IMG/VR virus record: IMGVR_UViG_2896595138_000001
Span: 1 to 30,379 of that record
DNA from: a virus
Lineage: Duplodnaviria > Heunggongvirae > Uroviricota > Caudoviricetes
Length of the DNA stretch: 30,379 bases
Direction: 5' to 3' (one strand)
Made by a program: the position numbers and the translations under genes. Shown in pieces: positions 8,076 through 26,510 of the stretch. Position 1 is the stretch's first letter. Each line of letters starts with the position of its first letter. Under the pieces are notes generated by a model. That model was not told where the DNA came from, ran no database searches, and was given only the letters and a program-made list of their open reading frames with translations.

Positions 8076-8638
8076 TGTCGCCATCATTACGCAAGGCTGT
8101 TGCAGTTGCTATTGGTGGCGGGGCTGTTGCTATAGCATCTGTGTTAATCACTGGCCCAGGTGGTAACGATGGCCTGGAAGGTGTCAGCTACATACCATAC
8201 AAAGATATCATTGGTGTATGGACTGTATGTCACGGACACACCGGAAAAGACATCATGCCTGGTAAAACGTATACCGAAGCAGAATGCAAAGCTCTCCTGA
8301 ATAAAGACCTTGCCACTGTCGCCAGACAAATTAACCCGTACATCAAAGTCGATATACCGGAAACAACGCGCGGCGCTCTTTACTCGTTCGTTTACAACGT
8401 GGGCGCTGGCAATTTCAGAACATCGACGCTTCTTCGCAAAATAAACCAGGGCGATATCAAAGGCGCATGTGACCAGCTACGTCGCTGGACATATGCTGGC
8501 GGTAAGCAATGGAAAGGGCTGATGACCCGTCGTGAGATTGAGCGTGAAGTCTGTTTGTGGGGCAGCAATGAGCAGAGTCACCGCGATTATCTCCGCTCTG
8601 GTTATCTGCATCATCGCCTGCCTGTCATTGGCTGCTAA
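8075..8638 (+). CDS. SAR endolysin (lysozyme, phage 21 R / RrrD-like)
   Basis: N-terminal signal-anchor-release segment ([20 protein letters not shown]) plus lysozyme domain; start overlaps the holin stop; C-terminus longer than recalled RrrD. Confidence 0.85.
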
Positions 8639-9031
8639 TCATTACCGTGATAACGCCATTACCTACAAAGAGCAGCGCGATAATGTGAAGGAAAAACTCA
8701 ACCAGGCGACCGCAATCATTACTGACATGCAGATACGCCAGCGTGATGTTGCTGCACTCGATGCAAAATACCTGAAGGAGTTAGCTGATGCGAAAGCTGA
8801 AAATGATGCTCTACGTGATGATGTTGCCGCTGGTCGTCGTCGGTTGCACATCAAAGCAGTCTGTCAGTCAGTGCGTGAAGCCACCACCGCCTCCGGCGTG
8901 GATAATGCAACCAGCCCCGACTGGCAGACACCGCTGAACGGGATTATTTCACCCTCCGGGAACGACTGGTAATGATGCAGGCCCAACTTGAAGGTGCTCA
9001 GCAATACATAACCGAACAGTGTTTAAAGTAA
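8568..9031 (+). pseudogene. Rz i-spanin, frame-shifted at a C run (8915-8918)
   Basis: N-terminus [16 protein letters not shown]… with TM helix; after ~codon 116 the canonical Rz C-terminus ([17 protein letters not shown]…QCLK) continues in another frame to the stop at 9029-9031. Confidence 0.65.
8788..8972 (+). pseudogene. Rz1 o-spanin lipoprotein embedded in Rz, disrupted by the same 1-bp indel
   Basis: GAAGGAG RBS, lipobox LVVVGC, proline-rich PPPPPAW; the canonical C-terminus [13 protein letters not shown]… now lies in the Rz frame downstream of the C run. Confidence 0.55.
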
Positions 9032-9168
9032 AATCTTAACTACAATATGATTCATTTTGATGATTGTTTCATAAGGAACAGTGAAGTAAGATCTTAGAGG
9101 AGTTGAATTTTATACAGTATAATCATAATGTTGCAGCAAGGTGGTTATAATTGAAAGAATATTTAGAT

Positions 9169-10888
9169 ATGAATACATCTCATGTAAGAGTTGTTACTCA
9201 TATGTGTGGGTTCCTGGTTTGGCTCTATAGTCTTTCAATGTTGCCACCAATGGTTGTAGCATTGTTTTATAAAGAAAAAAGCCTGTTCGTTTTCTTTATA
9301 ACTTTCGTTATATTTTTTGCATTGGTGGCGGAGCGTGGTATACAACTAAGAAATCTGGTATTCAATTACGTACCCGTGATGGGTTTATTATAATTGTAAT
9401 GTTTTGGATTTTGTTTTCTGTTATTAGTGCATTCCCTTTATGGATTGACTCAGAACTTAATTTAACGTTTATCGATGCTCTATTTGAAGGGGTTTCTGGA
9501 ATAACAACAACAGGAGCAACTGTAATTGATGATGTTAGTTCATTACCTCGGGCATATTTGTACTATCGGTCACAGTTAAATTTTATAGGTGGTTTAGGAG
9601 TTATTGTTCTGGCGGTTGCTGTATTGCCATTATTGGGTATTGGTGGTGCAAAGCTTTATCAGTCAGAAATGCCGGGGCCATTTAAGGATGACAAACTTAC
9701 TCCCCGCCTGGCCGATACGTCACGGACACTTTGGATAACTTATTCTTTATTAGGTATTGCTTGTATTGTCTGTTATAGACTTGCAGGAATGCCTTTGTTT
9801 GATGCTATTTGTCACGGGATATCCACAGTTTCGCTTGGTGGTTTCTCAACTCATAGCGAGAGTATCGGATATTTTAATAACTATTTGGTTGAGCTGGTGG
9901 CTGGTTCTTTTTCCCTGCTATCGGCTTTCAATTTCACCCTTTGGTATATTGTTATTAGCAGGAAAACGATAAAACCTTTAATCAGAGATATTGAACTTCG
10001 TTTCTTTCTGTTAATAGCCTTAGGGGTGATCATTGTTACCTCTTTCCAGGTCTGGCATATAGGTATGTATGACTTGCCTGGAAGTTTTATTCATTCGTTT
10101 TTTCTTGCCAGCTCCATGCTCACTGATAATGGTTTAGCTACGCAGGATTATGCAAACTGGCCCACGCACACGATAGTGTTTTTGCTGTTGTCAAGTTTCT
10201 TTGGGGATGTGTAGGTTCAACTTGTGGTGGAATTAAGTCACTTCGATTTCTTATACTTTTCAAACAAAGCAAACACGAGATAAACCAGCTTTCTCATCCC
10301 AGAGCGTTGTTGAGTGTAAATGTAGGAGGGAAGATAGTTACAGATCGTGTCATGAGGTCTGTATGGAGTTTCTTTTTTCTTTATACTCTCTTCACGGTGT
10401 TTTTTATACTGGTGTTAAATGGTATGGGATATGATTTTCTTACATCATTTGCAACAGTGGCTGCATGTATTAATAATATGGGATTAGGTTTTGGGGCTAC
10501 TGCATCGTCATTCGGAGTGCTTAATGACATTGCAAAATATTTAATGTGCATAGCTATGATTCTTGGTCGCCTTGAAATTTATCCTGTTATTATATTGTTT
10601 TCAGTTTTTTTTGGCGCTCCTAATATATGGCTGATTTATAATTGTGAGTTTAATATTATGTTGACTCACTCATTGATCCAATACCTAACTTTACCAGCAA
10701 CACCTCCGCCCCCAGTAGCACTGGCTGCTGGGGTGCGTTTTATTCATAAAGCAAGGCTGTATGAGCGAGATTTTATGCGTCCATCCGTAAGGGCGGAGCG
10801 AAAGGTGAAGCCAAGTTACGAGCGGCATTGTTTAAGCTTGCCAGAAAAGGGATGCCTTTGCTCTGCGCGAACTACTCAGGGTGGATAA
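9169..10888 (+). pseudogene. trkG: TrkG/TrkH-family K+ uptake protein (Rac-prophage trkG-like), split over three frames
   Basis: Pieces 9151..9393, 9399..10214 and 10307..10888 are polytopic membrane sequence with the recalled TrkG N-terminus (MNTSHVRVVTHMCGFLVWLYSLSMLPP…) and GIGG/GLG pore-loop motifs; AT-rich. True 3' end uncertain. Confidence 0.6.
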
Positions 10889-10927
10889 AAATCAGGACTA
10901 ACTGATGAGCAGACCGGACTGGGGGCG

Positions 10928-11995
10928 TTGCAGCAGGAGTATATTGCTGAATACACCCGCTCCGGTATATCTCCGGTGGCATGGTGTGAAGCAAGGGGAC
11001 TGAATTACGCAACAGCCCGTCGTTACATCAAAAAACCTCCGAAAAATGCGCAGACAGAAATGCGTAAAACTGCGCAACAAAGTGCGCAGAAAAAATCTGC
11101 GCAGACTGCGCAAAAGCGGAACGGAAAATCTCAGAAAAAAAAGCCAGTATCCGATGCGTGCCTGAATGAGGGCGACGCGGAGGAATTTTCGTTCTGCCCC
11201 GATGAATTCGGCATTTCTGACCAGCAGGCTAAGTTTGCGATGCTTGTTGCTCAGGGGAAAAAGCCGACAGAGGCATACCGACTGGCTGGTTATGAGGGGC
11301 AAGGTGCGACAGCTAACAGCAACGCCAGCCGTATGCTTAGAAATGCCAGGGTTTATCGTGCTATCAGTTACTTCCGCAATCAGTATCAGAAACGCTATAC
11401 CGCAGACCTGGATTTACTGGTGAGTCAGTTGATGGCTATTGTCCAGGCCGACCCCAATCAGTTGGCACAATTTCGCCGTGTTAACTGCCGTTATTGCTGG
11501 GGCGAGAATCATCTCTACCAGTGGCGTGATATTGCAGAATTCGATAAGGCAGCGGCACAGGCCTCCAGAGATGGCAAACCCGAGCCGGAATATGGAGGCC
11601 TCGGCTTTGTTGATAACGCCATACCCAATCCGGATTGTCCGAAGTGCTGCGGTGAGGGAACGGGACAGCTTTATATGGCTGATACCACTCTGCTTGATGG
11701 GGATGCGCGACAATTATATGCAGGGGCAAAGCTCGGGAAATTTGGTGTTGAGATCCTGCTGGAGGATAAGGCTGCCGCCCGGCGCGAACTTATCAAGCTG
11801 ATAATGGCGACGAAAGGAAGTTCTGCTGGTGGTGCAACTGACAGTCGCAATGATCTGGAGCTTGAAGGACTGAGGCTTCGCAACGAAAAGCTGCGCACTG
11901 AGATTGAAAACCTCAAAAAAGGCGTGGGTGGTGAGAATAACGAAATAATTATCCACAACTCTCTGCCGATGCCGGGAGTGGATAATGTCGATTGA
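10928..11995 (+). CDS. Terminase small subunit with C-terminal Cys-rich extension
   Basis: Central region resembles the terminase small-subunit domain (…TEAYRLAGYEGQGATANSNASRMLRNARVYRAI…); immediately precedes and overlaps TerL. Start annotated at a TTG, so the 5' end is uncertain. Confidence 0.6.
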   Translation: MQQEYIAEYTRSGISPVAWCEARGLNYATARRYIKKPPKNAQTEMRKTAQQSAQKKSAQTAQKRNGKSQKKKPVSDACLNEGDAEEFSFCPDEFGISDQQAKFAMLVAQGKKPTEAYRLAGYEGQGATANSNASRMLRNARVYRAISYFRNQYQKRYTADLDLLVSQLMAIVQADPNQLAQFRRVNCRYCWGENHLYQWRDIAEFDKAAAQASRDGKPEPEYGGLGFVDNAIPNPDCPKCCGEGTGQLYMADTTLLDGDARQLYAGAKLGKFGVEILLEDKAAARRELIKLIMATKGSSAGGATDSRNDLELEGLRLRNEKLRTEIENLKKGVGGENNEIIIHNSLPMPGVDNVD

Positions 11996-13313
11996 AATCT
12001 ACCTCCCAAAACCTCATGAGGGGCAAATAGCTGCATGGACGGCGGCAATAGAGGAACGCTTCCACGCGGTATGCTGTGGTCGTCGCTGGGGTAAAACGGT
12101 GATGCTGGTAAACATCGCTACCAGTTTCGCTACGCGGAAATTTGCCGTTCCTACCACCGGGCAACTTATCGCGGGTAGGGTGGGGATTTTTACCGCACAA
12201 TACCGCCAGTACCAGGAAATCTGGGATGAAATTAGCGCCGTTCTGCAACCGCTGATCCTCAGCCAGTCAAAAAATGAAAAGCGCATTATTCTCCGTAATG
12301 GGGGGCGCATCGACTTTTGGGTAACGGACAATAACAAACTAGCCGGGTGTGGGCGTAAATATCACGCTGTGCTGATTGATGAGGCAGCATTCACTAAATC
12401 GCCGGAAATGCTCGAGGAAATCTGGCCCCGAGCTATACGCCCGACGCTTGTCGATTACCGCGGCTGTGCGTGGGTATTTTCCACACCAAACGGTATCGAC
12501 GAGAGCAATTTTTTCTACGCGATATGCCACGATGAATCCCTGGGATTTGTCATGCACCATGCGCCAACTTCATCGAATCCGTATATTCCGAAAGAAGAAC
12601 TGGAGGAAACGGAGAAGAAATCCGATCCGCGCGTCTGGCAGCAGGAATATCTTGCCGAGTTCGTGGACTGGTCCAAAGACGCGTTACTCGATGTCGATAA
12701 GCTGCTGGTGGACGGTCAGCCGATTGAGATGCCGCCGTACTGCGACATGATTTTCGCAGTGATGGATACGGCGCTGAAAGGCGGGACCGAAAATGATGGT
12801 ACTGGCGTGTTGTATTTCGCTTATGAGTCAACGTATTCGGAAGAGCCAAAACTGACGATTATTGACTGGGATGTGACGCAAATTAAAGCGTCATTGCTTC
12901 CTGAATATATTCCCGGCGTTTATGACAACCTTGAGCGCCTCGCGAAATTATGCCGTCCGCGTCTGGGCAGCCAGGGAATTTTTATGGAAGACGCCGCGAT
13001 GGGGGCAATCCTCAACCAGAAGGCGGAAACCGAAGGCTGGGATATGACGCCGATTAAATCGGCACTAACCAGCAAGGGCAAAGACGAACGGGCGGTGATG
13101 GCATCCAGCTACCACTATCAGGGGATGTGCAAAATCGTCCGGGAGGCTTACGACAAGACCGTTTCATTCAAGCGCACCACCGCAAACCACCTCATAAAAC
13201 AAATCGCCGGATTCCACCTGGCGGATAAAGACGCGCATAAACGTGCTGATGACCTTTTCGATTGTTACACCTATGGATTGATCATCGCGCACGGTAATTA
13301 CGCGGAGTTGTAA
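11985..13313 (+). CDS. Terminase large subunit
   Basis: 442 aa with Walker A-like CCGRRWGKT and ATPase/nuclease arrangement; ATG overlaps the TerS stop. Confidence 0.8.
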   Translation: MSIEIYLPKPHEGQIAAWTAAIEERFHAVCCGRRWGKTVMLVNIATSFATRKFAVPTTGQLIAGRVGIFTAQYRQYQEIWDEISAVLQPLILSQSKNEKRIILRNGGRIDFWVTDNNKLAGCGRKYHAVLIDEAAFTKSPEMLEEIWPRAIRPTLVDYRGCAWVFSTPNGIDESNFFYAICHDESLGFVMHHAPTSSNPYIPKEELEETEKKSDPRVWQQEYLAEFVDWSKDALLDVDKLLVDGQPIEMPPYCDMIFAVMDTALKGGTENDGTGVLYFAYESTYSEEPKLTIIDWDVTQIKASLLPEYIPGVYDNLERLAKLCRPRLGSQGIFMEDAAMGAILNQKAETEGWDMTPIKSALTSKGKDERAVMASSYHYQGMCKIVREAYDKTVSFKRTTANHLIKQIAGFHLADKDAHKRADDLFDCYTYGLIIAHGNYAEL

Positions 13314-13330
13314 AAATCAGGATATTTTTG

Positions 13331-13500
13331 ATGGCAGAGATCGAGATTACTGGCGGCCTCGGTTCAGCACTGATGCGTATTCTTGAGGCTGAAGAAATTC
13401 AGCCAGGAACCGATATTGGCTATGAATTGTGTAAGCTGCTGTGGCAATTCCATCCTCTGGGCGGAAAACTTGTCGAAAAACCCATACTGATGGCGATGTG
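13331..13500 (+). pseudogene. N-terminal fragment of the gene after terminase (portal expected by synteny), cut by an IS110-family element
   Basis: About 57 codons of phage-like coding sequence directly downstream of TerL, then the reading frame runs into the IS. Identity by position only; 3' boundary approximate. Confidence 0.3.
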
Positions 13501-14968
13501 TAATCCGCGACAGTATAACGTGCCCCTATTAAGTTGTCAAGCATGTTATGACCCCTGCGGGGTATAAAAAGTCCCGTCGCGCATCATGGCGAACAGAACG
13601 TCGCAGCGTCGTCTCGCCAGGGCGATAAGCGCCTGATTGTGTCGTTTTCCCTGACTCATTTTGCGGGTGTAGTAAGCCCTGGAGAGCGGATCCCTGAGCG
13701 CGGCGAAGGCCGACAGGAACAACGCCCGTTTGAGAGCTTTATTACCCCGTCGCGAGGGATGCTCACCGCGTATTGACGAGCCGGATCGCCGAGTTACCGG
13801 CGCAAGGCCAGCATAAGCAGCGAGATGTGCGGCAGAGGCGAAGGCGCGGCAGGCGACCTCGGTGAGGAGTCTGGCTGCGGTCCTGACACCGACTCCGGGC
13901 ATACTGGTCAGGACCGGGTAAAGAGGGTGAGCAAGAACTCGCTGTTCTACCTCAAGCGCCACCTCGTCTCTTTGCTTACGCAGCGTGATGAGCTGGAGTG
14001 CCAGACGTGGCAGTACTACGGCAGCGGCATTCGTGCCGGGAACGACGACGGTTTGTTCGGCCAGTGCCTGAGCTATGTCTGCTGCAAGGCGTTTACCCAG
14101 ACGAGGCGCAAGTTTGCAGAGCTGGGCTGCCAGCTTCTTCTCACCCAGCGAAGCGAGTTTTTCTGGTGAGGGATATCGCTGGAGAAGATCGAGTACCGCC
14201 GGGTGCTCAAGTCTCGGACCGAGAACGCGCTCCAGTGCCGGATGTATCTGGGTCAGAAGGCCGCGGAGACGGTTGCTGGCCTGCGTTGTCTGTGCGGCAA
14301 GATCATCATCGAAGCCGCAGAGCATGGAGAGTTCGGCGATTTGCTCGTCAGCCAGTTTCAGCGTGCGTAGCGCGTGAGGCAGGGTACGGGCAGCTTCGGC
14401 AATGATGGCAGCGTCACGAGCATCAGTTTTAGCTTCACCGGCGTGTAAGTCGGCTATGCGGCGCATGGCCAGTCCAGGGAGGTATCCGACAAGGACTCCT
14501 TCTGAGCGGGCAACGGCGACAGGTAACGCACCGATGGTAGCTGGCTGATCAACAACCAGCAGTATCTGACCATGTTGTTTCAGGTCAGATATTAGCGACC
14601 TGAGTTTGTTTTCGTCGTTGGGTAATGCTTTATCGAACAGGCGTTTACCTGAACGATTAATGGCAACAGCGTGATGCGTATCTTTACCGACATCAACGCC
14701 GATAAAGACCTGGACGGATTCGTAATCGCTGGATTCGGTCATTCTGTCTCCCTTGTATATGGGTTAACCAGATAACCACGGGGAGCAGGTACCGGCATCC
14801 ACGTTACAGACGGTCCCGGCAAAAGTGCCTGACCTGACCCCTATTAGCGGTTACCAGCGCCCCACCAGACCCGGTGACATCACCCCCGGATCATGGACGA
14901 CTGGGGGCAGTAATCATGCCGGGTCTGGCTGGCTAACACCCCATTATAAGGGGTACGAATAAAGTAAC
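13501..14968 (-). mobile_element. IS110-family insertion sequence (boundaries approximate)
   Basis: Contains a DEDD-type IS110-family transposase and a ~226 bp structured 5' non-coding leader; IS110 elements lack terminal inverted repeats, so ends are inferred from where flanking phage reading frames break. Confidence 0.7.
13546..14742 (-). CDS. IS110-family transposase/recombinase (DEDD N-terminal domain + Transposase_20-like C-terminal domain)
   Basis: 398 aa; N-terminus VFIGVDVGKDTHHAVAI, C-terminal …AYAGLAPVTRRSGSSIRGEHPSRRGNKALKRALF… typical of the IS110/IS1111 family. Confidence 0.85.
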   Translation of the reverse strand: MTESSDYESVQVFIGVDVGKDTHHAVAINRSGKRLFDKALPNDENKLRSLISDLKQHGQILLVVDQPATIGALPVAVARSEGVLVGYLPGLAMRRIADLHAGEAKTDARDAAIIAEAARTLPHALRTLKLADEQIAELSMLCGFDDDLAAQTTQASNRLRGLLTQIHPALERVLGPRLEHPAVLDLLQRYPSPEKLASLGEKKLAAQLCKLAPRLGKRLAADIAQALAEQTVVVPGTNAAAVVLPRLALQLITLRKQRDEVALEVEQRVLAHPLYPVLTSMPGVGVRTAARLLTEVACRAFASAAHLAAYAGLAPVTRRSGSSIRGEHPSRRGNKALKRALFLSAFAALRDPLSRAYYTRKMSQGKRHNQALIALARRRCDVLFAMMRDGTFYTPQGS

Positions 14969-14971
14969 GGG

Positions 14972-15688
14972 GTGAGCGATGCCCTGCAAGGCATTAATCA
15001 GAAAATCGATGGTGTCGTTACGCGCATGGACTCACTAGAACAGCGGGACAAAGCGCGGGCGGATGCCGAAGAACAGGTGAAAAAAGAGGCCGAAGAAAAG
15101 GCCAAAGCCGATGAAGCCGCAGAGGAACGGCGTAAAGCTGATGAAGCTGCGGCAAAGGAGGCGGAAGAAAAAGCCAAAGCTGACGAGGCGGCAGCTAAAG
15201 ACGCTGAGGAGAAAGCAAAGGCTGATTCCGAAGCGGAAGAACAGCGTAAGGCTGCCGAGGAGGCAGAAAAAGAACGCAATGACTCAGCCTTGGCAGAAGC
15301 ACAGGCAAAAGCCGACTCCGCATTCAGTGCCTGCGGTAAAAACGCGCCAGCACCGTTTTCTGGTGAAAATGCGCTGGACTACCGCAAGCGTGCGCTAATC
15401 GCTATGCAGAAACACTCTTCGGTACATAAGGACGTCAATATTCGCGCGATTGCGGATTCTGCAACGCTGGCTGTGCTTGAGGACGCAATTTTCAGTGCCG
15501 CCCGTCAGTCCATCGAAAAAGAAATGATGAGTACGCAGGGGCAACTGCATAAACGTATCCGCAACGATGAAGCCGGACGTCGCATTACTGAATATCAGGG
15601 CGATCCGAACGTCTGGCTGAGTGCTTTCAAAATTCCGGGGCGTCGTCTGGCAAAAATTAACACTCAAGGGAGCCTGAACAATGGCTGA
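14972..15688 (+). CDS. Head scaffold-like coiled-coil protein (possibly 5'-truncated by the IS110 element)
   Basis: Frame opens right at the IS boundary; repetitive (EEKAKADEAA)n coiled-coil region typical of scaffolding proteins; lies upstream of the capsid genes. Functional call by composition and position only. Confidence 0.35.
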   Translation: MSDALQGINQKIDGVVTRMDSLEQRDKARADAEEQVKKEAEEKAKADEAAEERRKADEAAAKEAEEKAKADEAAAKDAEEKAKADSEAEEQRKAAEEAEKERNDSALAEAQAKADSAFSACGKNAPAPFSGENALDYRKRALIAMQKHSSVHKDVNIRAIADSATLAVLEDAIFSAARQSIEKEMMSTQGQLHKRIRNDEAGRRITEYQGDPNVWLSAFKIPGRRLAKINTQGSLNNG

Positions 15689-15717
15689 TATTAACTTTCA
15701 TCCGTTTAAAAACCGTG

Positions 15718-15729
15718 GAGCATTTGGTG
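15718..15729. repeat. IS4 target-site duplication, left copy (GAGCATTTGGTG)
   Basis: Identical 12 bp at 17154..17165, directly flanking the IS4 ends. Confidence 0.85.
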
Positions 15730-17153
15730 TAATGCCGATCAGTTAAGGATCAGTTGACCGATCCAGTGGCTGTGTAAGAATCCGGAAACGCTCACTTGTT
15801 TCCGGATTTTTTTATGCACATTGGACAGGCTCTTGATCTGGTATCCCGTTACGATTCTCTGCGTAACCCACTGACTTCTCTGGGGGATTACCTCGACCCC
15901 GAACTCATCTCTCGTTGCCTTGCCGAATCAGGTACTGTAACGCTACGCAAGCGCCGTCTTCCCCTCGAAATGATGGTCTGGTGTATTGTTGGCATGGCGC
16001 TTGAGCGTAAAGAACCTCTTCACCAGATTGTGAATCGCCTGGACATCATGCTGCCGGGCAATCGCCCCTTCGTTGCCCCAGTGCCGTTATTCAGGCCCGC
16101 CAGCGCCTGGGAAGTGAGGCTGTCCGCCGCGTGTTCACGAAAACAGCGCAGCTCTGGCATAACGCCACGCCGCATCCGCACTGGTGCGGCCTGACCCTGC
16201 TGGCCATCGATGGTGTGTTCTGGCGCACACCGGATACACCAGAGAACGATGCAGCCTTCCCCCGCCAGACACATGCCGGGAACCCGGCGCTCTACCCGCA
16301 GGTCAAAATGGTCTGCCAGATGGAACTGACCAGCCATCTGCTGACGGCTGCAGCCTTCGGCACGATGAAGAACAGCGAAAATGAGCTTGCTGAGCAACTT
16401 ATAGAACAAACCGGCGATAACACTCTGACGTTAATGGATAAAGGTTATTACTCACTGGGACTGTTAAATGCCTGGAGCCTGGCGGGAGAACACCGCCACT
16501 GGATGATACCTCTCAGAAAGGGAGCGCAATATGAAGAGCTCAGAAAACTGGGTAAAGGCGATCATCTGGTGAAGCTGAAAACCAGCCCGCAGGCACGAAA
16601 AAAGTGGCCGGGACTGGGAAATGAAGTGACAGCCCGCCTGCTGACCGTGACGCGCAAAGGAAAAGTCTGCCATCTGCTGACGTCGATGACGGACGCCATG
16701 CGCTTCCCCGGAGGAGAAATGGCGGATCTGTACAGTCATCGCTGGGAAATCGAACTGGGATACAGGGAGATAAAACAGACGATGCAACTGAGCAGGCTGA
16801 CGCTGAGAAATAAAAAGCCGGAGCTTGTGGAGCAAGAGCTGTGGGGTGTCTTACTGGCTTATAATCTGGTGAGATATCAGATGATTAAAATGGCGGAACA
16901 TCTGAAAGGTTACTGGCCGAATCAACTGAGTTTCTCAGAATCATGCGGAATGGTGATGAGAATGCTGATGACATTGCAGGGCGCTTCACCGGGACGTATA
17001 CCGGAGCTGATGCGCGATCTTGCAAGTATGGGACAACTTGTGAAATTACCGACGAGAAGGGAAAGGGCCTTCCCGAGAGTGGTAAAGGAGAGGCCCTGGA
17101 AATACCCCACAGCCCGAAAAAGAGCCAGTCAGTTGCTTAACTGACTGGCATTA
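15730..17153 (+). mobile_element. IS4 (1424 bp here, canonical 1426 bp)
   Basis: Terminal inverted repeats TAATGCCGATCAGTTAAG… / …CTTAACTGACTGGCATTA; 12 bp direct target duplication; encodes the IS4 transposase. Confidence 0.9.
15814..17144 (+). pseudogene. IS4 transposase (InsG-like) with two 1-bp deletions in C runs
   Basis: Matches recalled K-12 IS4 transposase (MHIGQALDLVSRYDSL…YREIKQ…), but frames change at CCCC 16076-16079 and CCC 17113-17115; the canonical C-terminus PKKSQSVA is in another frame. Confidence 0.8.
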
Positions 17154-17165
17154 GAGCATTTGGTG
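17154..17165. repeat. IS4 target-site duplication, right copy (GAGCATTTGGTG)
   Basis: Identical to 15718..15729. Confidence 0.85.
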
Positions 17166-17747
17166 GCCTTTTTAACGTCGAATCCCGTGGGCTGATGCAG
17201 GGGGATGCGCAGGATGATCCGGCAATTCGTCTGCAACTTTGCTCCGGTCGACTGGACAGCAAAATCACTGAACCGGTATGGGGTGGCGTTGGAGTTATGG
17301 AGTGCATTGCCCCGCGAAAGACAGCGTTAACGGCGCGGTAATTAAACAAGCCACGAAGGACGCCTGTAACGCCTTTACTGTCTTTAATCAGGCATTTCAT
17401 GGCATTACCACGCCGGATAATCCGGTGCCGTTATATCTCGCGGGTGGCTTTGTTCACTATTACCGCGTTGGCTCAGGTGCCCGCATTCCTCTCCCTGTCA
17501 GTGCAGAAGTTGTTGCGCTGGCTGATGGAAATAACACCGTTGCTGCCAGTGGTTTTGTGTGGGATCTGACGAAAAACATGGTTGATGTTTATTCGGGATC
17601 ACCCGGCGCTAATCCGAAAGTGGATATTAAGCTGCTGATGGTTTCAGTTGACGGAAACCTGACGGTGAAAAAAGAGGATGGTGGTAACGTTGTCTGGGAA
17701 ATCGGCAAACCGTGCGGCCTGTTTTTAATTTAAGGGGATATTAATTA

Positions 17748-18776
17748 ATGAGCGCATTTACTCCTGCGACTACTATTGTGTCGCCGTCAATGGTGCTGCC
17801 GGAAATGATCGTGCAACAGAGCATGGCTTCCGGGGCGTTTGAAGTCCTGGCCGGTGGTGCTCCAGCGGTAAAAATCAGTTCCAGTGATTTGATGGTCTAT
17901 CAGAAATATATGCGCATGACCTCGCAGGCGCAGGTCAGCCAGTCTCTGCCGGGTCAGTTACCGTCTTCCAGTATCTCTGGCGGCTATGACGGAATGATGA
18001 CTTACCGAATTTCTTCCCGCTCGCAATACAGCTATCTCGATACTGATGCAGCAGATCGCTGGGGCTATTCTCTGATTGAAGGCCTGCGCCTGGCTAACCG
18101 TCAGGGACACGCTCAAATGTTGCGTAATATGCTGCTGTATGGCGTGAATGCAGCTAATAACGAGGGGATCACCAACTCACCGAACGCAGTGACGCTGAAT
18201 CTGGGCAACGACAGCAAAGGTAACGATTCGTACACCACCTGGGATTCCGGCGAGATGGCTAAATTTATGCTTGGCCTGATTGCTGACCAGAAAACCCGCA
18301 TGTTGCTGCTGGGGCAGCCATTAACGACTGTTATTCTGAGCCCACAGCGATTCATGAAGGCGCTGGAGTGGACAGGAATTGTTGAGCTGACCAGTTACCA
18401 GCGTCCTGGTGGTGGTACCGGAACGGTGGGAACGATGGTTAAAGACGTCGCCGATAAGGCGACAGGCGACGACATCATGTTCTGCCAGGACGACACGCTG
18501 ATCGGTAAAGGCGCTGGTGGTAATGACCTGATCATCGTTACGAACCCGACGATTGAGGTTCCGGAAGCGCGTCACACCATTAACACCAATATTTTCTCCC
18601 CGCTGGTACCTAACCAGCAGGCCGTCAACGTGATGTTCTGTGATATGGCAGCGCCGACGGAAATCCCGTCCCCTATGCCGGATGGCGGCCTGACCACGTT
18701 GTATACCATGCGCGCGACGCCGGGCTGGAACTTCCGCCCTGAGGGGATCACCCTGTTGTCTGCCAAATACGCATAA
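17748..18776 (+). CDS. Putative major capsid protein (342 aa)
   Basis: AAGGGGA RBS; large ORF after scaffold-like and head genes, followed by a strong intrinsic terminator. Call by size and synteny, not by a recognised motif. Confidence 0.45.
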   Translation: MSAFTPATTIVSPSMVLPEMIVQQSMASGAFEVLAGGAPAVKISSSDLMVYQKYMRMTSQAQVSQSLPGQLPSSSISGGYDGMMTYRISSRSQYSYLDTDAADRWGYSLIEGLRLANRQGHAQMLRNMLLYGVNAANNEGITNSPNAVTLNLGNDSKGNDSYTTWDSGEMAKFMLGLIADQKTRMLLLGQPLTTVILSPQRFMKALEWTGIVELTSYQRPGGGTGTVGTMVKDVADKATGDDIMFCQDDTLIGKGAGGNDLIIVTNPTIEVPEARHTINTNIFSPLVPNQQAVNVMFCDMAAPTEIPSPMPDGGLTTLYTMRATPGWNFRPEGITLLSAKYA

Positions 18777-18795
18777 ACGTTCAATCTGATAACGC

Positions 18796-18818
18796 GGGAG
18801 CTAAATGCTCCCTTTTTT
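18796..18818 (+). terminator. Rho-independent terminator after the putative capsid gene
   Basis: GGGAGC-TAAAT-GCTCCC hairpin followed by T6. Confidence 0.5.
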
Positions 18819-18830
18819 GTGGGAAAAATT

Positions 18831-19347
18831 TATGAAGCTCTACATCGCTAACTGCTCACGTCAGCCGCACACGTTCAACTACAAACTCCCCGAAAAAACG
18901 CAGTCGTTCGGTGTGACAATTCCGTCCGGACGTCAGCATATGATCGAAAATCAGTCCGATATTATCGACCACATCATCCGACAGCATGAGCCTTACGGAT
19001 TCCAGCGTTGTGACAAGGTGGACAAGAATTTTTCCGGTATCTGCTATTCCATCGATAAACCTGTGAGCGTCGGTCGCATTGAGGATTGCGCGGAGCAGAA
19101 AACGGAAAATCTGGAATCCCTGTCAGAAGAAATTCTTGCAGCCAGCGCCGTATCGCTGAATAACGCAGTGGATCAGGCAGTGATTCAAAGTGGCGAAAAA
19201 CCTCAACCGGGTGGTATTGAAATGGAAATCACCGGGAAGCGATTAACACTGAACAGGAAAATCCGCCCAGCACAAAGCGAAATATTAAGGTTAAAAAATA
19301 ATGACCTTGCGTCCGTCACTGGAGGGATTTATTCGCTTTGTTCGTGA
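18831..19347 (+). CDS. Phage structural/head-tail joining region protein (hypothetical)
   Basis: 172 aa ORF in the co-oriented structural operon between capsid and tail sheath genes. Confidence 0.35.
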
Positions 19348-19741
19348 CGACATGAAAGTATCGGTTCACGCTATTGCTGACGATGATCCGACGCTGGAAT
19401 GTTGCTTTCAGTCTGCTATGGAGCTAATCCCTCACGATCAGGGGCTGGAGCGTTTACCCATCATCTATGTGCGAACGGTTTATAACGCTGCCGCCTCATT
19501 TCTCCTGAATTTCGCTCCCGGCTCGCGGTTTGCCGACCTGAGAAAAAAACTCAACCTTGGGAAACTGGCTACCGGGCTTGTCAGCGCGGCAGCAGACCAG
19601 GGGACATCTGGTTCGATCACCATCAGCGACGCGCTGAGTAATCTGTCTTTGCTGGATTTGCAGATGTTACAGGATCCGTATGGACGACAGGTTGTTGCGG
19701 TGCTGATGCAGATGGGCACGGTATGGGGTTACACGCCATGA
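19301..19741 (+). CDS. Phage structural protein (hypothetical)
   Basis: 146 aa ORF overlapping neighbours within the structural operon. Confidence 0.35.
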   Translation: MTLRPSLEGFIRFVRDDMKVSVHAIADDDPTLECCFQSAMELIPHDQGLERLPIIYVRTVYNAAASFLLNFAPGSRFADLRKKLNLGKLATGLVSAAADQGTSGSITISDALSNLSLLDLQMLQDPYGRQVVAVLMQMGTVWGYTP

Positions 19742-20118
19742 AACTTTGTTTTGGGGTTATCGACCAGCCGTATGACTACGGCGACGAACTGGGAAAAACC
19801 ACGTTTGACGTGGCCTGTGACCTCGAGGAGCGATACGAAATTTTTACGCACTTCTGGGAAATGCATAAGGACGAGATTATCCAGGAGGCAGGTACTGAAC
19901 TGGCGTACCAGTTGGTCAATCACTTCAAGTATAAGGCTCCGCTACCTGGCGAGCATTTTCTGGAAGGGACCGGGAAGATTTTCCATATATTTCTTGAAAC
20001 CGAAGAAATGGCCGGAATGACGATCAACGGAAATCAGGTCCCAACCCAGGCTGCGTTACAGGGTGTTAACTCAAGGCTTAAGGACAAATATACCGGGAGC
20101 GGCGCCCGTCATTCATAG
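19738..20118 (+). CDS. Phage structural protein (hypothetical)
   Basis: 126 aa ORF; ATG overlaps the upstream stop (ATGA). Confidence 0.35.
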   Translation: MKLCFGVIDQPYDYGDELGKTTFDVACDLEERYEIFTHFWEMHKDEIIQEAGTELAYQLVNHFKYKAPLPGEHFLEGTGKIFHIFLETEEMAGMTINGNQVPTQAALQGVNSRLKDKYTGSGARHS

Positions 20119-20163
20119 ATGGCGGCCTGTTTAAGGGCAGCTTTATAGCGTGGATAGATAACA

Positions 20164-21108
20164 ATGCCGAGTCTTGAAGAATTAACCGAACAGCACAGTT
20201 CGCAGCTCTCGTCCGTTCTTAAATCCGCAGTTGAAACCATCTCGTCAGACCAGGAAATCACGTTCAGGCTCTATGTCCGGCAGGTTCTGCCGCTGGATGG
20301 CTTTGTCTATTGGGTTAATGCGGAAATCATCAGTTGCGATGAACTGTGTCGTCTGAATATTGAGTCACCAACTCGTCTGAAAATCAAAGGCAGCCTGCAT
20401 CGTCAGATTATTGCGATTCAGGACGAGTCTGTCTCGAAGGATGTGAACAACATTATTTTCACGCCTGTTCAGCAGGTTGATGATTTTAATGTGGAAAATC
20501 CCGATGCGATCTATCTCGGTGAGTACGGCGGCGTCCAGTTCGCTTTTTCTCGAATGGAGAGCCGCTATCAGCAGTCGGGTATTTTTCATTATCGCGGCAT
20601 GGCGATTTTGCCAACCATGCGTTCCCAGATTATCGACTGCGAGGAGGATATCAGCGACGAGCAGATCATATCCAACAGCATCCCGATCTGGCTGCAAATG
20701 AAAGATGCCGCGACCGTGTATCCGTCTTACCTGGTACCGCAGAACCTTCGCCCTCCGTATATCGCGGTGGATGTTCGCAACAGTATTCCATTGCAGGTGG
20801 CTCCCGTTGTTTTCGGTGGTGAGCGATTCCAGCTCGTCCAGGATTCGGTTCGCCTGACGCTTTATGGATTCAGCAATAAAATGGCGCTGGATCTTGTCGA
20901 CTCGGTGGTGAACAGGGCGCTGGAGGAGGAAAAGTTTGGTGTAACCAATATTCCGGTGGTTCAGGACGCAAAGTCGGGACAGGTTGAAATCAACGCTCTG
21001 GCGAAGAAAAAGATTGTCGATTTTGACGTGAATTACTACCAGAGCACCGCCCGGGAAATATCCCGGCAGTTGATTGAAAAAGTCATTTGTAAATATGAGG
21101 TTAAATAA
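20164..21108 (+). CDS. Phage structural protein (hypothetical, 314 aa)
   Basis: Long ORF immediately upstream of, and overlapping the start of, the sheath-like gene. Confidence 0.4.
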   Translation: MPSLEELTEQHSSQLSSVLKSAVETISSDQEITFRLYVRQVLPLDGFVYWVNAEIISCDELCRLNIESPTRLKIKGSLHRQIIAIQDESVSKDVNNIIFTPVQQVDDFNVENPDAIYLGEYGGVQFAFSRMESRYQQSGIFHYRGMAILPTMRSQIIDCEEDISDEQIISNSIPIWLQMKDAATVYPSYLVPQNLRPPYIAVDVRNSIPLQVAPVVFGGERFQLVQDSVRLTLYGFSNKMALDLVDSVVNRALEEEKFGVTNIPVVQDAKSGQVEINALAKKKIVDFDVNYYQSTAREISRQLIEKVICKYEVK

Positions 21109-22444
21109 TGGGGTTTAATATCGTCACGGTGAATGTGTCCCAGACCATCGGGGCCATTCCCTCGAATTTGCAGCAGATGTCTGCTGTTCTCTCGTTTGGC
21201 TCCACGACTCATGAGCCGGGAAAGCCTGTATTACTCACCCGTAATCAGGATATTAACGATCTGGTAAGAAATCCGATTGCTGCGTTGTCGGCGGCTGCTG
21301 CAGGAAAATCTGCGGCAAACGTCACCGTTACGATGACGCTTCCGGAAGGGAGCAACATCCGACGCGAAAACAGTTCTGAGGTGAAAATTGTTGTTTCCGG
21401 GTGTTCGCCCGACGCGTGGAATGGCGAATATACTGCTACCGTCACGGATGAAAAAACACTGACCTGGACGATTGCTGATTCTCAGCTTTCCGGTTCGCCA
21501 GTGACACTGGGGCAGTTTTCCATTGTTGGCAGTGAAAATCTGGTGACGGCAGTAAACACGTTTTTTGCCCAGGGAAATTCAGTTGGGATTTACCTGCTGG
21601 AGCTGGGAGTACAGAAAGGTGGAGTCAGTAAGGAAATCGCTGCACTGAAAGCTTATATGGAAGATCCGCTCCTGCGTTTTTATGCGTATCTGGTGCCGCA
21701 GCCGTGGGATGGTGACGCAGAGTTTATCAGTCTGGCAAAACTCCACACCGCCAACGAAGCGATGCAGTATTTCTTCGTGCTGACGAAAACGCCGGACGAC
21801 ACGAATTACGTTTCGCCTTATGCCGGTATTAAGTCGGTTATTGCAACGGCGGATGATACGTACCCGGCGACAAACGCGGCAGCAGCCGTAATGTGGAACT
21901 ATGTTTCCGCATCACCTTCAGAAATCAACAAGGTGCCGCCGATGGCATTTCGCTATCTACAGGCGGTAAACGCCCACACGGGCAAAAATTCAATTCTGGT
22001 CACGATGACGAAGCAGAATATTAACTACGTCGACACGGGGGCTGAGGGGGAATTTCCAACACGATTCTGGTGAAAGGCGTTACCAGTGACGGTAACGATA
22101 TGACGTACTGGTATTCCGTGGACTGGGTGCAGATTAATGTCGATATGCAGCTCGCCAACACGGTGATCAACGGCAGCAATAACTCAATTAACCCGCTTTA
22201 CTACAACCAGGACGGGATCGACCGTCTACAGCAGGTCGCACAGGCGGTGTTCAATACGGGCGTATCTTACGGCCTGGTCAACGGTCAGCCTGTCGTCGAT
22301 GCAGTGCCTTTCCGCCAGTATATCAACACTAATCCCAATGATTACGGTATCGGGCGTTATGCAGGCCTTTCGGCCTCCTATACGCCGATGCGCGGATTTG
22401 TCGAAATCATTTTTAACATCAATGTGACAATGCAGCTTTCGTGA
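21108..22444 (+). pseudogene. Putative tail sheath protein (~445 aa), frame-shifted at a G5 run (22046-22050)
   Basis: ORFs 21108..22073 and 22070..22444 join if GGGGG is GGGGGG; size and position (before a ~147 aa tube-like gene, chaperone and TMP) fit a contractile-tail sheath. Confidence 0.4.
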
Positions 22445-22455
22445 GGGACTGAACC

Positions 22456-22899
22456 GTGCCTAATCCAATGATCCCCGTTGGCACCCTTAACCGGGTTCGC
22501 GCCAGCGTTAAATTCACCTCCCATTCTGAACTGAATGTGTCCGCCTCATTTCTGGCAAAAGAAGGCGTCGAATTGTCCTTTCAGGGCAATATCACGGAGT
22601 TTTTACCCGCTATGACGGGAGCCGTGCAGTCGCCGCAGCCATACATGATTTTACAGGCGCGTGTTCATCTGCTGCGTAGCCAGGCGCTGGGAAAACAATT
22701 CAAGGCGCAATGGAAAAAGAATGCCACGATCGGCGACGCAAAAGTGTATAGCGACAGCACGGTGTTCGGTGACTTCGATATCTATAACACGGCGATCACC
22801 AACGTGCAGGATATGACCTTCGCCGGGGGCGAGCCGGGTGTGGCCATCACCATTACTGGTACGTATTACATCAACTCTGAAATGTGGGATCTGGTATGA
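22456..22899 (+). CDS. Putative tail tube protein (147 aa)
   Basis: GAGGGA RBS before a GTG start; size and position right after the sheath-like gene. Confidence 0.35.
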   Translation: MPNPMIPVGTLNRVRASVKFTSHSELNVSASFLAKEGVELSFQGNITEFLPAMTGAVQSPQPYMILQARVHLLRSQALGKQFKAQWKKNATIGDAKVYSDSTVFGDFDIYNTAITNVQDMTFAGGEPGVAITITGTYYINSEMWDLV

Positions 22900-23579
22900 A
22901 AATCGCGCGAAATTTAAACCTGATTATTCCTGTCCGGACAGAAAAGGGTAATGGCTGGATCCATGCCACGCCGATCAGCAAAGAGGTGTTTAAAGAGCAT
23001 TTCTTCATTCTGAGTAAAACTTTTTCTGCCATTTTTTCAGAAGGTCTTGGCGTCGTTGCGGGTCCGCGTATCGCTTTTTTGATGCTGGAGCGGATCTCGC
23101 GTGATTCTAATATCTGGGAAGGTGATAAAGGGGTCCGTAATACACTTGTTAATGAGGTCATTCGCCTGGCAAACCTTGTTTACCCAGTGGAGGGTAAAGG
23201 CTACGACACAATCCCTCTCGATATGGCGCTGGAGCGTGAAATCATTGATTTGGATGAAGTGGCGGGTGAGCTCATTTTTTTTTACATGCGTCTCGTCGAT
23301 AAATTCACCGGAGCAGGCGAAGGGGACTATGGATGTGGTCAATGGAGTATGGAGCACTCAATGCTCGTTATTGAATCTTACGGAATGGATCGCTTCATTG
23401 CCGACATTGAAATCAGCCGCCAGTTCTGGCGCGACGGCGAACACGTCATCAGCGACATCCTCGACTACTCAGCCGGAGCCGGATTCAGAGACATCTGTGC
23501 AGATTCCGGCCTAAATGTAAAAACAGCAGCTCAGTTTCGTGAGCTGCTCAAATTCAAAAATCCCGCAGGAGTATTGTGA
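22896..23579 (+). CDS. Putative tail assembly chaperone (227 aa)
   Basis: Sits between tube-like and tape-measure-like genes; start overlaps the upstream stop. Confidence 0.3.
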   Translation: MKIARNLNLIIPVRTEKGNGWIHATPISKEVFKEHFFILSKTFSAIFSEGLGVVAGPRIAFLMLERISRDSNIWEGDKGVRNTLVNEVIRLANLVYPVEGKGYDTIPLDMALEREIIDLDEVAGELIFFYMRLVDKFTGAGEGDYGCGQWSMEHSMLVIESYGMDRFIADIEISRQFWRDGEHVISDILDYSAGAGFRDICADSGLNVKTAAQFRELLKFKNPAGVL

Positions 23580-24243
23580 TGGCTGGTAACCAGATGCCAG
23601 TTCTGACGCTGGATGTTAATGAAGAACACCTCAGGCGGCTTGAGGCGATATTTGAAAAGTATCGCAACGGACTGATGATTGGCCCTGCCGGTACGCCGCT
23701 TAAAATACCTTCAAATACCGGTCCGGGAGGTGGCTCTTGGCAGACAACCACAGGCGGAGAAGCCAATCAGGCTCCCAGGAAACCATCTTCACCCGCGCCA
23801 GTTCTGGCTGCTTCCACTGATGGACGTTTAAGGGATGAAAAATGGCGCTTTGTTGGCAGCGGGAAAACACCTGATTCGCTGGTGAGCAACTATAAAGGTC
23901 GCGGCGAAACGATGTTTGATAAGTACCTCAGCGGGCTGGGGAAAAACGCCAAACAGACGCTGAAAACTTACAAGCAGATCAATTCTACGCTACGGACGAC
24001 CACTTCGAGATTAAACAACCTGTTTAAAACCACCGTATCGTGGGGGACAAAACTTGCGGTTATGGGCGTTGCCGGGCCGTTTGGCTTTGGCATGATGGCT
24101 CGTAATGTTGTAGAGAAACAGAAAAATGCTGATGAATTGCAGGCAACTCCAGGAGAGTTAAAGGCGGCAGAAAGCACTTATTCGCCTTATTTTTCCGGTG
24201 TTGGTAATTTGCTCAATACACTGGCAGCCGCGCAAAATGACAC
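23579..24243 (+). pseudogene. Putative tape measure protein, N-terminal fragment truncated by IS600
   Basis: Reading frame runs straight into the IS600 left end at 24244 and terminates on an IS-encoded stop; hydrophobic segment (AVMGVAGPFGFGMMARNVV) typical of TMPs. Confidence 0.4.
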
Positions 24244-24307
24244 TGAGGTAGCCTGAGTTTAACGGACACTCCTTCCTGAAATAGAATGGCATCAGAAGGA
24301 GCTAATA

Positions 24308-24610
24308 ATGAGCAGAAAAACCCAACGTTACTCTAAAGAGTTCAAAGCCGAAGCTGTCAGAACGGTTCTTGAAAATCAACTTTCGATCAGTGAAGGCGCT
24401 TCCCGATTATCCCTTCCTGAAGGCACTTTAGGACAATGGGTTACCGCCGCCAGAAAAGGGCTCGGTACTCCTGGTTCCCGCACGGTGGCTGAACTGGAAT
24501 CTGAAATTCTGCAACTGCGTAAGGCGTTAAATGAAGCTCGCCTTGAGCGAGATATATTAAAAAAAGCAACAGCGTATTTTGCACAGGAGTCGCTGAAAAA
24601 TACGCGTTAA
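24308..24610 (+). CDS. IS600 OrfA
   Basis: Identical protein to the copy-1 OrfA. Confidence 0.9.
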   Translation: MSRKTQRYSKEFKAEAVRTVLENQLSISEGASRLSLPEGTLGQWVTAARKGLGTPGSRTVAELESEILQLRKALNEARLERDILKKATAYFAQESLKNTR

Positions 24611-24645
24611 TCGAACAATGGCGACAACAATTTCCCATTGAAGCG

Positions 24646-25464
24646 ATGTGTCAGGTATTTGGTGTATCCAGGAGCGGTTATTACAACCGGGTACAGCATG
24701 AACCCTCAGACAGAAAACAAAGTGATGAGCGGCTAAAACTGGAGATTAAGGTGGCACATATCCGCACTCGCGAAACATATGGAACCCGGCGGCTCCAGAC
24801 GGAGCTGGCAGAGAATGGCATCATCGTTGGTCGTGACCGACTGGCACGTCTTCGTAAGGAGCTAAGGCTACGCTGTAAGCAGAAACGCAAGTTCAGAGCG
24901 ACTACGAACCCGAACCACAATCTGCCAGTTGCGCCAAATCTGCTGAACCAGACGTTCGCTCCTACAGCACCAAATCAGGTCTGGGTGGCGGACCTGACGT
25001 ATGTTGCCACACAGGAGGGATGGTTGTACCTCGCTGGCATCAAAGATGTTTATACGTGCGAAATTGTCGGCTACGCCATGGGAGAGCGCATGACAAAAGA
25101 GCTGACAGGTAAAGCCCTGTTTATGGCGCTCAGGAGCCAGCGCCCACCTGCCGGGCTAATCCACCACTCTGATCGAGGTTCACAGTACTGCGCATACGAT
25201 TACCGGGTCATACAGGAGCAGTTTGGTCTGAAAACATCAATGTCGCGTAAAGGTAACTGTTACGACAACGCTCCGATGGAAAGCTTCTGGGGAACGCTGA
25301 AAAATGAGAGCCTGAGCCACTATCGTTTTAATAACCGGGATGAAGCCATCTCAGTAATACGGGAATACATTGAGATTTTCTACAATCGTCAGCGTCGTCA
25401 CTCTCGTCTGGGGAATATCTCCCCGGCAGCCTTCAGGGAAAAATATCATCAGATGGCTGCTTAA
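24646..25464 (+). CDS. IS600 OrfB (DDE domain)
   Basis: 272 aa, one residue different from the copy-1 OrfB. Confidence 0.9.
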   Translation: MCQVFGVSRSGYYNRVQHEPSDRKQSDERLKLEIKVAHIRTRETYGTRRLQTELAENGIIVGRDRLARLRKELRLRCKQKRKFRATTNPNHNLPVAPNLLNQTFAPTAPNQVWVADLTYVATQEGWLYLAGIKDVYTCEIVGYAMGERMTKELTGKALFMALRSQRPPAGLIHHSDRGSQYCAYDYRVIQEQFGLKTSMSRKGNCYDNAPMESFWGTLKNESLSHYRFNNRDEAISVIREYIEIFYNRQRRHSRLGNISPAAFREKYHQMAA

Positions 25465-25507
25465 AAAAAGAACAAATGGTAGTGTCCGCTATTGCCAGTA
25501 CACCTCA

Positions 25508-26510
25508 CCGTGATGATGCACAACGTTTTGCGGAGAAAGCCCGACAGGATGCAACCGTCACAGCTGAGAACAGAAAGGCCACAGCGGAAGACGTGAAAAG
25601 CACGGGGAAAAACGCCGTCTTATCCGGTCAGCGTGCACAGGCAGCCGCAGGTTATGCCCGCGCAGCAGAACAGGCCAAAAATGACATTGATGCTGCGCTG
25701 ACCGGCACTCTGAAAACGGCTAACCATCTGTCTGAAATCGCAGCAGCAGGCGAAAAGGCACAACAGAAGTCCCGGGATAATCTGGGGCTGAAAAGTGCGG
25801 CCACGATGGAAGCACAGAGCGACATTTACGACCGGACAAAAGGCCGTCTGGCGATACCCGGCGCATTCGGCTTTGGGTGTGCTTTTCTGCCTGAAGATGT
25901 TATCCGTTTTGACACTAAGAGTGATTTCCTGGCCTGGGTAAGGAATGCGCTGCCAGGTGAGTATTCCGTTGCTGGCCGCCAGGGCATCATACCCGACACA
26001 CGGTTTGAAGGGGTGCTCAGCATCCGGTGGACTGATGCACACCCTGAGACAATAGAACCGCGGTACAGAGCCAAATCCCTTACTTTTTACGGCATTAACG
26101 GCCCCATTTATCACACCCGCTACTGCTACTGGCCCATATCCAGACTGACTGGCTGGGTGAAAATAAATATAACCACAGAAGATATTATTTACAGAATCGT
26201 GGCGAGCTCTGTCCGCAACAGATGGGGAGACCCTGACATTGGCGGGCTGATTATTGCTGCGTACCAGGGAGAAGCTGACGGTGATAAAGTCATCAGACTT
26301 GTCAGGGGGCAGTCATACAGAGGCTCACGACTGGAACCGGTGGGGATTTCAGTGCCCAGTACTCCCACCGGAACGTATATAGCATCCCCACAATTTTTCA
26401 TTACGGGATGTTCAGAGCATTCATTACCGGGGTCATATTGCGCCCTGTCCGGGGTGCCGGATGCACATGTCTCTGGCGCAATGCCCGGGCTTTTTATTCG
26501 CACATCGTGA
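25508..26510 (+). pseudogene. Side tail fibre protein, C-terminal fragment (5'-truncated by IS600)
   Basis: Frame is open from the IS600 right end; Ala/Gln/Lys-rich repeats (…AAAGYARAAEQAKNDIDAALTG…) typical of lambdoid Stf shafts; followed by a tail fibre assembly gene. Confidence 0.55.

Follow-up and report, generated by a model that had tools for sequence, protein, structure and literature searches.

Stepwise decay of a Rac-like Shigella prophage: probable deletion from the end of an ISEc20 insertion into the portal gene

The cryptic prophage Rac of Escherichia coli K-12 is a trkG-bearing lambdoid element from which most head and tail genes are gone, and it bears an insertion sequence (IS). 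Here we describe the IMG/VR virus record IMGVR_UViG_2896595138_000001 (30,379 nt in full, referred to below as the window), the remnant of a Rac-like prophage with trkG and ipaH3 on a Shigella chromosome (GCA_002950375.1, CP026845.1; 4.93 Mb). Its head module contains a complete copy of ISEc20, an element of the IS110 family, next to a short remnant of the portal gene. Recombinases of the IS110 family can excise DNA that lies between directly oriented sites (PMC11208160). We consider it very probable (roughly 0.9) that ISEc20 and then IS4 inserted into this head module, and that a 2610-bp segment reaching from the ISEc20 end into the portal gene was deleted later. What is seen is ordinary decay of a Shigella prophage driven by ISs, and no new system is involved.

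The extent of the loss is defined by intact relatives. In the prophage of E. coli EC11 (NZ_CP027255.1; L001), the genes of the small (terS) and large (terL) terminase subunits are followed by genes for proteins of 478, 277, 440 (DUF2213), 205 and 342 residues. Outside the ISs, positions 10900–19400 are 97–99% identical to many E. coli prophages and to phages Rac-SA53 and vB_Apl-pPE4, which span ∼8.2 kb, compared to ∼5.6 kb of non-IS DNA in the window. In BLAST alignments, window positions 10900–13522 correspond to positions 1501–4124 of L001 and positions 14972–15729 to 6734–7491, and the intervening 2609 bp of L001 (4125–6733) have no counterpart in the window. When the EC11 proteins were used as tblastn queries, the window was found to retain residues 1–64 of the 478-residue protein, none of the 277-residue protein, and residues 203–440 of the DUF2213 protein. 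The deletion thus took portal codons 65–478, the whole 277-residue head-morphogenesis gene and DUF2213 codons 1–202.

The initial annotation, made from the sequence alone, had described an IS110-family insertion coinciding with an apparent loss of the portal gene. The insertion is confirmed as a complete ISEc20 at 13520–14972, and the portal loss as ∼2.6 kb absent relative to the relatives (2609 bp against EC11 and 2610 bp against a sister prophage, L022, described below). The two do coincide, although sister strains indicate that the IS entered the DUF2213 gene and not the portal gene, and that the deletion came later. A short portal remnant does precede the IS, with 64 codons rather than the ∼57 first estimated. 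The loss is larger than the portal gene alone, since it also includes the 277-residue gene and DUF2213 codons 1–202. The open reading frame (ORF) beyond the IS, taken earlier for a scaffold-like protein, is instead the C-terminal DUF2213 fragment.

The 478-residue protein of intact relatives can be identified as the portal by its match to PF06381 (Phage_portal_3, DUF1073; 47.5 bits for a cut-off of 33.8) over residues 62–349 and to phrog_146 (1e-74). Its stub in the window (codons 1–64; 13331–13522, plus strand) is 95% identical to residues 1–64 by tblastn, and the ORF continues into the IS to a stop at 13567. The stub matches phrog_146 N-terminally (5.5e-6) and has no Pfam match; the residues kept almost wholly precede the region matched by PF06381, and the stub represents only part of a family member and does not count as a functional one. 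The PGAP name of the portal gene in EC11 (L001 3933–5369), "anti-CBASS protein Acb1 family protein", was rejected as both Pfam and PHROGs identify a portal; NCBIfam gives just a sub-threshold match to a phage-associated family, and the name looks like a propagated misnomer. The 277-residue protein matches phrog_324, annotated as head morphogenesis. The intact DUF2213 protein contains PF09979 at residues 46–164 and has weak matches (1e-7 to 3e-5) to PHROGs of head maturation proteases. This N-terminal domain is absent from the window, where only residues 203–440 of 440 are kept (14972–15688, plus strand; 98.3% identity by tblastn). The corresponding 238-residue ORF has a GTG pseudo-start, is predicted to form a coiled coil, matches positions 310–545 of phrog_6216 and gave no match in a Pfam scan. 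The ORFs flanking the IS should be labelled as pseudogene fragments of the portal and of the DUF2213 head protein.

No second portal was found in the window; the initial annotation had likewise seen no other ORF of portal size (over 400 residues) in the structural module. A tblastn search with the cognate portal matches only 13331–13522, and Pfam scans of all unassigned stop-to-stop ORFs of at least 90 residues, packed into pseudo-proteins for the search, identified no portal family. ORFs of at least 250 residues are accounted for by terS, terL, the IS110, IS4 and IS600 transposases, the capsid protein, the tail sheath, the tail fibre and IpaH; the remaining one (314 residues) has no assigned function and co-occurs with the portal in intact relatives too.

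The ISEc20 insertion in the DUF2213 gene is common to all five related assemblies, whereas IS4 is present in three of the five (the window, GCA_031665755.1 and CP026877). In three sisters, S. boydii ATCC 9905 (AERN01000081; L014/L020), CP026875 (L015/L021) and GCA_031665755.1 (L022), ISEc20 is a simple insertion, with the 478-residue portal, the next gene and a DUF2213 N-terminal fragment of 204–216 residues all located upstream. The portal is intact and IS4 missing in both ATCC 9905 and CP026875, and ISEc20 therefore arrived before IS4. L022 carries the same ISEc20, IS4 and downstream IS600 as the window. The two align in two blocks, both with 99.87% identity (∼18 kb in all): window 7589–13522 with L022 1–5940, and window 13520–25681 with L022 8548–20717. 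Their single structural difference is the 2610-bp segment L022 5941–8550, and L022 retains the portal (478 residues), the 277-residue gene and the DUF2213 N-terminal fragment (called as 211 residues).

The two blocks overlap in the window by three nucleotides, GTG (13520–13522), which form the deletion joint. The portal reads AAC GTG GAG at this point and the IS flank GGGGGG TG CCCC, so that the overlap consists of one flanking G and the first two bases of the IS. The joint in the window is GCGACAGTATAACGTG/CCCCTATT, where the slash marks the junction, and L022 has ...TATAACGTG/GAGACAG... and ...TTACAGGGGGGTG/CCCCTATT at the two corresponding places. With longer context, ...CAGTATAACGTG/GAGACAG... 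in L022 compares with ...CAGTATAACGTG/CCCCTATT... in the window; the k-mers specific for the joint and for the ancestral arrangement are CAGTATAACGTGCCCCTATTAAG and TTACAGGGGGGTGCCCCTATTAAG. No more than 3 nt separate the endpoint of the deletion from the IS terminus, and ISEc20 itself is left intact, which suggests that the IS end was probably involved.

A different deletion is present in CP026877.1 (L023), where the missing 6.2 kb begin within trkG and end within the ISEc20 recombinase gene, and the joint shows no microhomology. Its joint (9082/9083 of L023) is equivalent to window position 10446 joined to 14055, and terS, terL, the portal and more are lost. As this deletion is independent, the region has decayed repeatedly.

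ISEc20 lies on the minus strand of the window (13520–14972; 99.7% identity over 1453 nt by megablast to copies annotated as ISEc20 in records of Stx phage and the PPompW prophage; the element is also annotated in many E. coli genomes). It encodes an intact recombinase/transposase of 398 residues (13546–14742, minus strand), consisting of a DEDD_Tnp_IS110 domain (PF01548; 5.6e-49, profile positions 1–155 of 155) and a Transposase_20 domain (PF02371; 6.3e-22). The ends of the element, TGCCCCTATTAAG... and ...AATAAAGTAAC, are not inverted repeats, and its non-coding DNA is asymmetric, with ∼230 nt upstream of the recombinase ORF versus ∼25 nt downstream. Both domains, the near-identity to a curated element, the lack of terminal inverted repeats and the long left end place it in the IS110 group of the IS110 family.

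The right end (RE) of the element is at the left of its position in the window, and its flank lacks the usual G-run. All eight other copies examined have a G-run there, which reads exactly GGGGG/GTGCCCC in six of them, while in two diverged plasmid copies the G-run is followed by a slightly changed IS end; the window reads TATAAC/GTGCCCC. The opposite end is ...GTAACGGGG/... in 8/8 other copies, and the right junction, GTAACGGGG/TGAGCGATG, is the same in the window, L016 and L017. Native copies are thus bordered by G-runs on both sides, as is the DUF2213 site of the sisters (G4–6 to the left and G4 to the right of ISEc20), whereas the window copy has a G-run on the DUF2213 side and none on the portal side. 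Since this G-run is missing, the portal-side joint must be secondary, and the portal gene was at no time a target of the IS; the RE flank differs because the deletion replaced the original half of the target.

The nature of the target is clearest at the frmR-yaiO site of K-12 (L024, ∼2008–2017), which reads G10 when empty and G6-TGCCCC...GTAAC-G6 when occupied by ISEc20. These two states point to a G-run as the target, with a 2-nt core retained on both sides. The site was taken as a cleaner basis for the 2-nt core than an rtcB-family gene split by ISEc20 in RM9467-C1, for which two intact alleles exist, GGGCGGGG and GGGGGGTGGGG (L025/L026; E. coli PEC408 and C325), that support differing definitions of the IS ends. 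With 3 nt more than the other, the allele GGGGGGTGGGG corresponds to the filled site after removal of CCCC...GTAAC and addition of one G; it could be the true target or the footprint of an in-frame excision. The sites that ISEc20 targets appear to be G/C homopolymer runs.

The left non-coding end of ISEc20 (14743–14968, minus strand) is a candidate bridge-RNA region, based on its predicted fold and on analogy with IS621. The fold has an energy of −98 kcal/mol (z = −2.5), and its first large stem-loop holds C-run and G-run segments, CUGCCCCC and CCGGGGGUG, which by this analogy could serve as target guides for the homopolymer. A scan of 13300–15200 against Rfam found no bridge-RNA family and only one small-RNA match at chance level. 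At the predicted junction of an ISEc20 circle, TTGACA of the right end would be ∼18 nt from TACTTT of the left end, and the two could form a promoter. The terminal 65 bp of the left end (14908–14972) also occur alone, with 100% identity, beside Rz spanin genes in several E. coli, which suggests that they are ISEc20 remnants in other prophages. A second ISEc20 of the same orientation is located just upstream of the holin gene in ATCC 9905 (L020 1–267) and CP026875 (L021 1–270), and none is present there in the window.

The order of events follows from comparing the assemblies. ISEc20 would first have entered the DUF2213 head gene, at a G-run near codon 202, and IS4 would then have inserted 48 nt into the following gene. 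In the lineage of the window only, 2610 bp between portal codon 64 and the RE of ISEc20 would subsequently have been lost. With respect to mechanism, and provided that the deletion is real, we lean slightly towards an illegitimate, microhomology-mediated deletion, which could have started from a nick or break made by the IS recombinase at its own end. Several points weigh against the account as a whole. The joint is seen in one assembly only, with a single contig carrying the junction ORF, and that assembly contains systematic 1-nt homopolymer undercalls, although losing 2.6 kb of unique sequence is not an error of that type. The predicted pre-insertion DUF2213 allele, with G8, has no exact match among complete E. 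coli genomes, where the best matches differ at two positions. The mechanism of the deletion cannot be read from the sequence alone, and the loss of head assembly is itself deduced.

The proximity of the joint to the IS terminus (within 3 nt, with the IS intact) would also be expected if the bridge recombinase of ISEc20 had itself recombined the RE junction with a pseudo-site, an off-target sequence within the portal gene, and so released the 2.6 kb in circular form. Excision between direct-orientation sites is within the capability of IS110 recombinases, as cited above, and a crossover at the portal sequence TATAA-CG-TGGAG, with CG replacing the GG core, would yield the observed joint. However, every native target examined has a G-run and the portal site has none; the C-run and G-run segments of the left end fit a homopolymer target; and the pseudo-site would match at most one of the two core bases and ∼2 of the 8 flanking guide positions. 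Crossover at the only GG of the portal site, which would respect the core, was considered and rejected, as the joint expected from it is AACGTGGTGCCCC, not the AACGTGCCCC of the window. A programmed event of this kind is therefore unlikely, given both the missing G-run and the absence of the joint expected from a GG crossover. The same missing G-run bears on a two-copy route, in which a second ISEc20 in the same orientation inserted at portal codon 64 and homologous recombination then deleted one copy together with the 2.6 kb. Its product would look identical to the window, and the second same-orientation copy found elsewhere in the prophage in L020 and L021 indicates that multi-copy states occur. 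Nevertheless, this route requires that the second copy first inserted off target, where there is no G-run, and that a further event followed, and no relative was found to carry ISEc20 within the portal gene. Recombination between two native insertions was rejected as the main model because the portal side lacks the G-run of the 8/8 other copies, and we regard the route as improbable.

The two remaining alternatives question whether a deletion took place at all. The 2.6-kb gap could be an artefact of the CP026845.1 assembly, the strain being really sister-like; the joint occurs in this one assembly, and all 14 of its indels relative to the sister are homopolymer undercalls. On the other hand, the missing segment is unique and bounded by only 3 nt of identity, so that no repeat collapse is involved, and an independent deletion of the same region exists in the complete genome L023. 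An artefact is thus very improbable. A simple insertion of ISEc20 into one gene of ∼300 residues, with nothing lost, which the initial annotation had kept as its alternative, would account for the plus-strand coding continuity across the IS, which is superficial. In all intact relatives, however, the two flanks (portal residues 1–64 and DUF2213 residues 203–440) belong to two genes ∼2.6 kb apart, with a third gene between them; they do not align as one uninterrupted gene, the gap measures 2609–2610 bp, and a simple insertion is refuted. The stepwise account, with ISEc20 and IS4 insertion followed by deletion from the IS end, is therefore preferred.

In the rest of the head module, the small terminase subunit (10928–11995, plus strand; Terminase_2 of Pfam, phrog_51) is 99.7% identical to residues 7–363 of its EC11 homologue; its first codons seem to be lost, but a homopolymer is undercalled by 1 nt at this place (10920). 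The large subunit (11985–13313, plus strand) is intact, with 442 residues and 99.8% identity to the EC11 terminase over its full length, and has a weak Terminase_6N match under the Pfam cut-off. The probable major capsid protein (17748–18776, plus strand; 342 residues) is also intact, with 98.8% identity to the EC11 homologue and a match to phrog_6671; its match to phrog_264, "major head protein", is weak. IS4 (15730–17153, plus strand) is a simple insertion 48 nt into the 205-residue gene that follows DUF2213 (a rac44 homologue, phrog_6268). It is flanked by a 12-bp target-site duplication, GAGCATTTGGTG, at 15718–15729 and 17154–17165, and has terminal inverted repeats. It encodes the Nterm_IS4 (PF13006) and DDE_Tnp_1 (PF01609) domains and conforms to the IS4 definition, including a duplication of 11–13 bp; by megablast, ∼15723–17173 is ∼99% identical to IS4 of phage records.

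Relative to L022, the window has 14 indels, every one of them the loss of a single base from a G or C run (7594, 8558, 8914, 10202, 10848, 10920, 14882, 16075, 17112, 17309, 18795, 19233, 20094 and 22045), which looks like systematic sequencing error. Several genes are split in the window, each at an undercall: trkG (at 10202), the IS4 transposase (at 16075), the 205-residue gene, two head-completion genes (at ∼19233 and ∼20094) and the tail sheath, which is 321 + 124 residues in the window versus 445 in L022. These frameshifts are probably errors of the CP026845.1 assembly, not biology. The gene trkG (9151–10888, plus strand) encodes a TrkG/TrkH-like potassium transporter and is placed as in Rac-type prophages, with the lysis cassette on one side and terS on the other. 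A lambda-type integrase is also split (738–1772 and 1741–2094, both minus strand): an ORF of 246 residues holds the N-terminal part, the catalytic C-terminal part stands apart from it, and an excisionase ORF is adjacent. This stretch is outside the L022 comparison, and the same homopolymer error is no more than a guess for the split.

Without the portal, the head-morphogenesis protein and the N-terminal domain of DUF2213, the element would be unable to build or fill capsids. The inference of the initial annotation that heads probably cannot be assembled is thus well founded. The head module had already been disrupted before the deletion, by ISEc20 in the DUF2213 gene and IS4 in the next gene, and heads probably could not be made even then. 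Two copies of IS600 in the same orientation (2707–3971 and 24244–25508) lack matching 3-bp target duplications. The second adjoins a phrog_7694 gene cut short at residue 223 of 675, and the tail fibre beside IS600 begins at about position 269 of 568, missing the first ∼268 profile positions. These truncated flanks imply that an IS600-associated deletion or rearrangement cost the prophage much of its tail and baseplate module; L022 has the same IS600 structure. The distal end of the prophage encodes an intact IpaH3 type III effector E3 ligase (27261–28976, minus strand; 571 residues) with LRR_TTSS and NEL domains. IpaH3 is likely the reason that the remnant was retained, and the remnant may persist as a fixed carrier of ipaH3.

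An exact protein look-up of the 78-residue junction ORF returned a single record, GCA_002950375.1/CP026845.1, and the 238-residue DUF2213 fragment returned four further assemblies; names on identical proteins point to Shigella boydii. The exact 41-nt pattern across the portal/IS junction has no match in species-representative genomes. In the literature found, ISEc20 appears only within an IS list for S. sonnei 53G and phage Rac-SA53 merely in passing, and the locus is not described in either context. The significance extends little beyond annotation: an ipaH3-carrying Shigella prophage is a fixed remnant presumably unable to make capsids. Nonetheless, its stepwise decay is cleanly resolved, as every intermediate (the IS, the second IS and the deletion at the IS end) is kept in sequenced sisters. 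G/C-run targeting and the deletion at the ISEc20 terminus could also interest work on side reactions of IS110 bridge recombinases; a deletion by the bridge recombinase, if true, would be a wild example of genome deletion by such an enzyme, with the predecessor kept in a sister strain.

Among known systems, the sister Shigella prophages are the same prophage with the same ISEc20 site at 99.5–99.9% identity. The gene order is also that of the EC11 prophage and of phage Rac-SA53 (KU052037.1), at 97–99% identity, whereas the window lacks the 2.6 kb and bears ISEc20, IS4 and IS600. K-12 Rac has lost nearly its whole structural module; the loss in the window, in contrast, is a discrete 2.6 kb for which the predecessor exists in a sister. 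ISEc20 resembles the bridge-RNA system of IS621 (Durrant et al. 2024; PMC11208160) in its recombinase architecture and in a long left end that is predicted to fold into stem-loops with segments fitting the target. The apparently specific target and the short core suggested on both sides would likewise be IS621-like. The two differ in that the ISEc20 target is a G/C homopolymer run and that of IS621 is REP-like, and in that guide segments in ISEc20 are candidates predicted from the fold. Finally, the window copy shares its DUF2213-side G-run junction with other annotated ISEc20 copies and is distinguished from them by its RE flank, which consists of portal DNA with no G-run.

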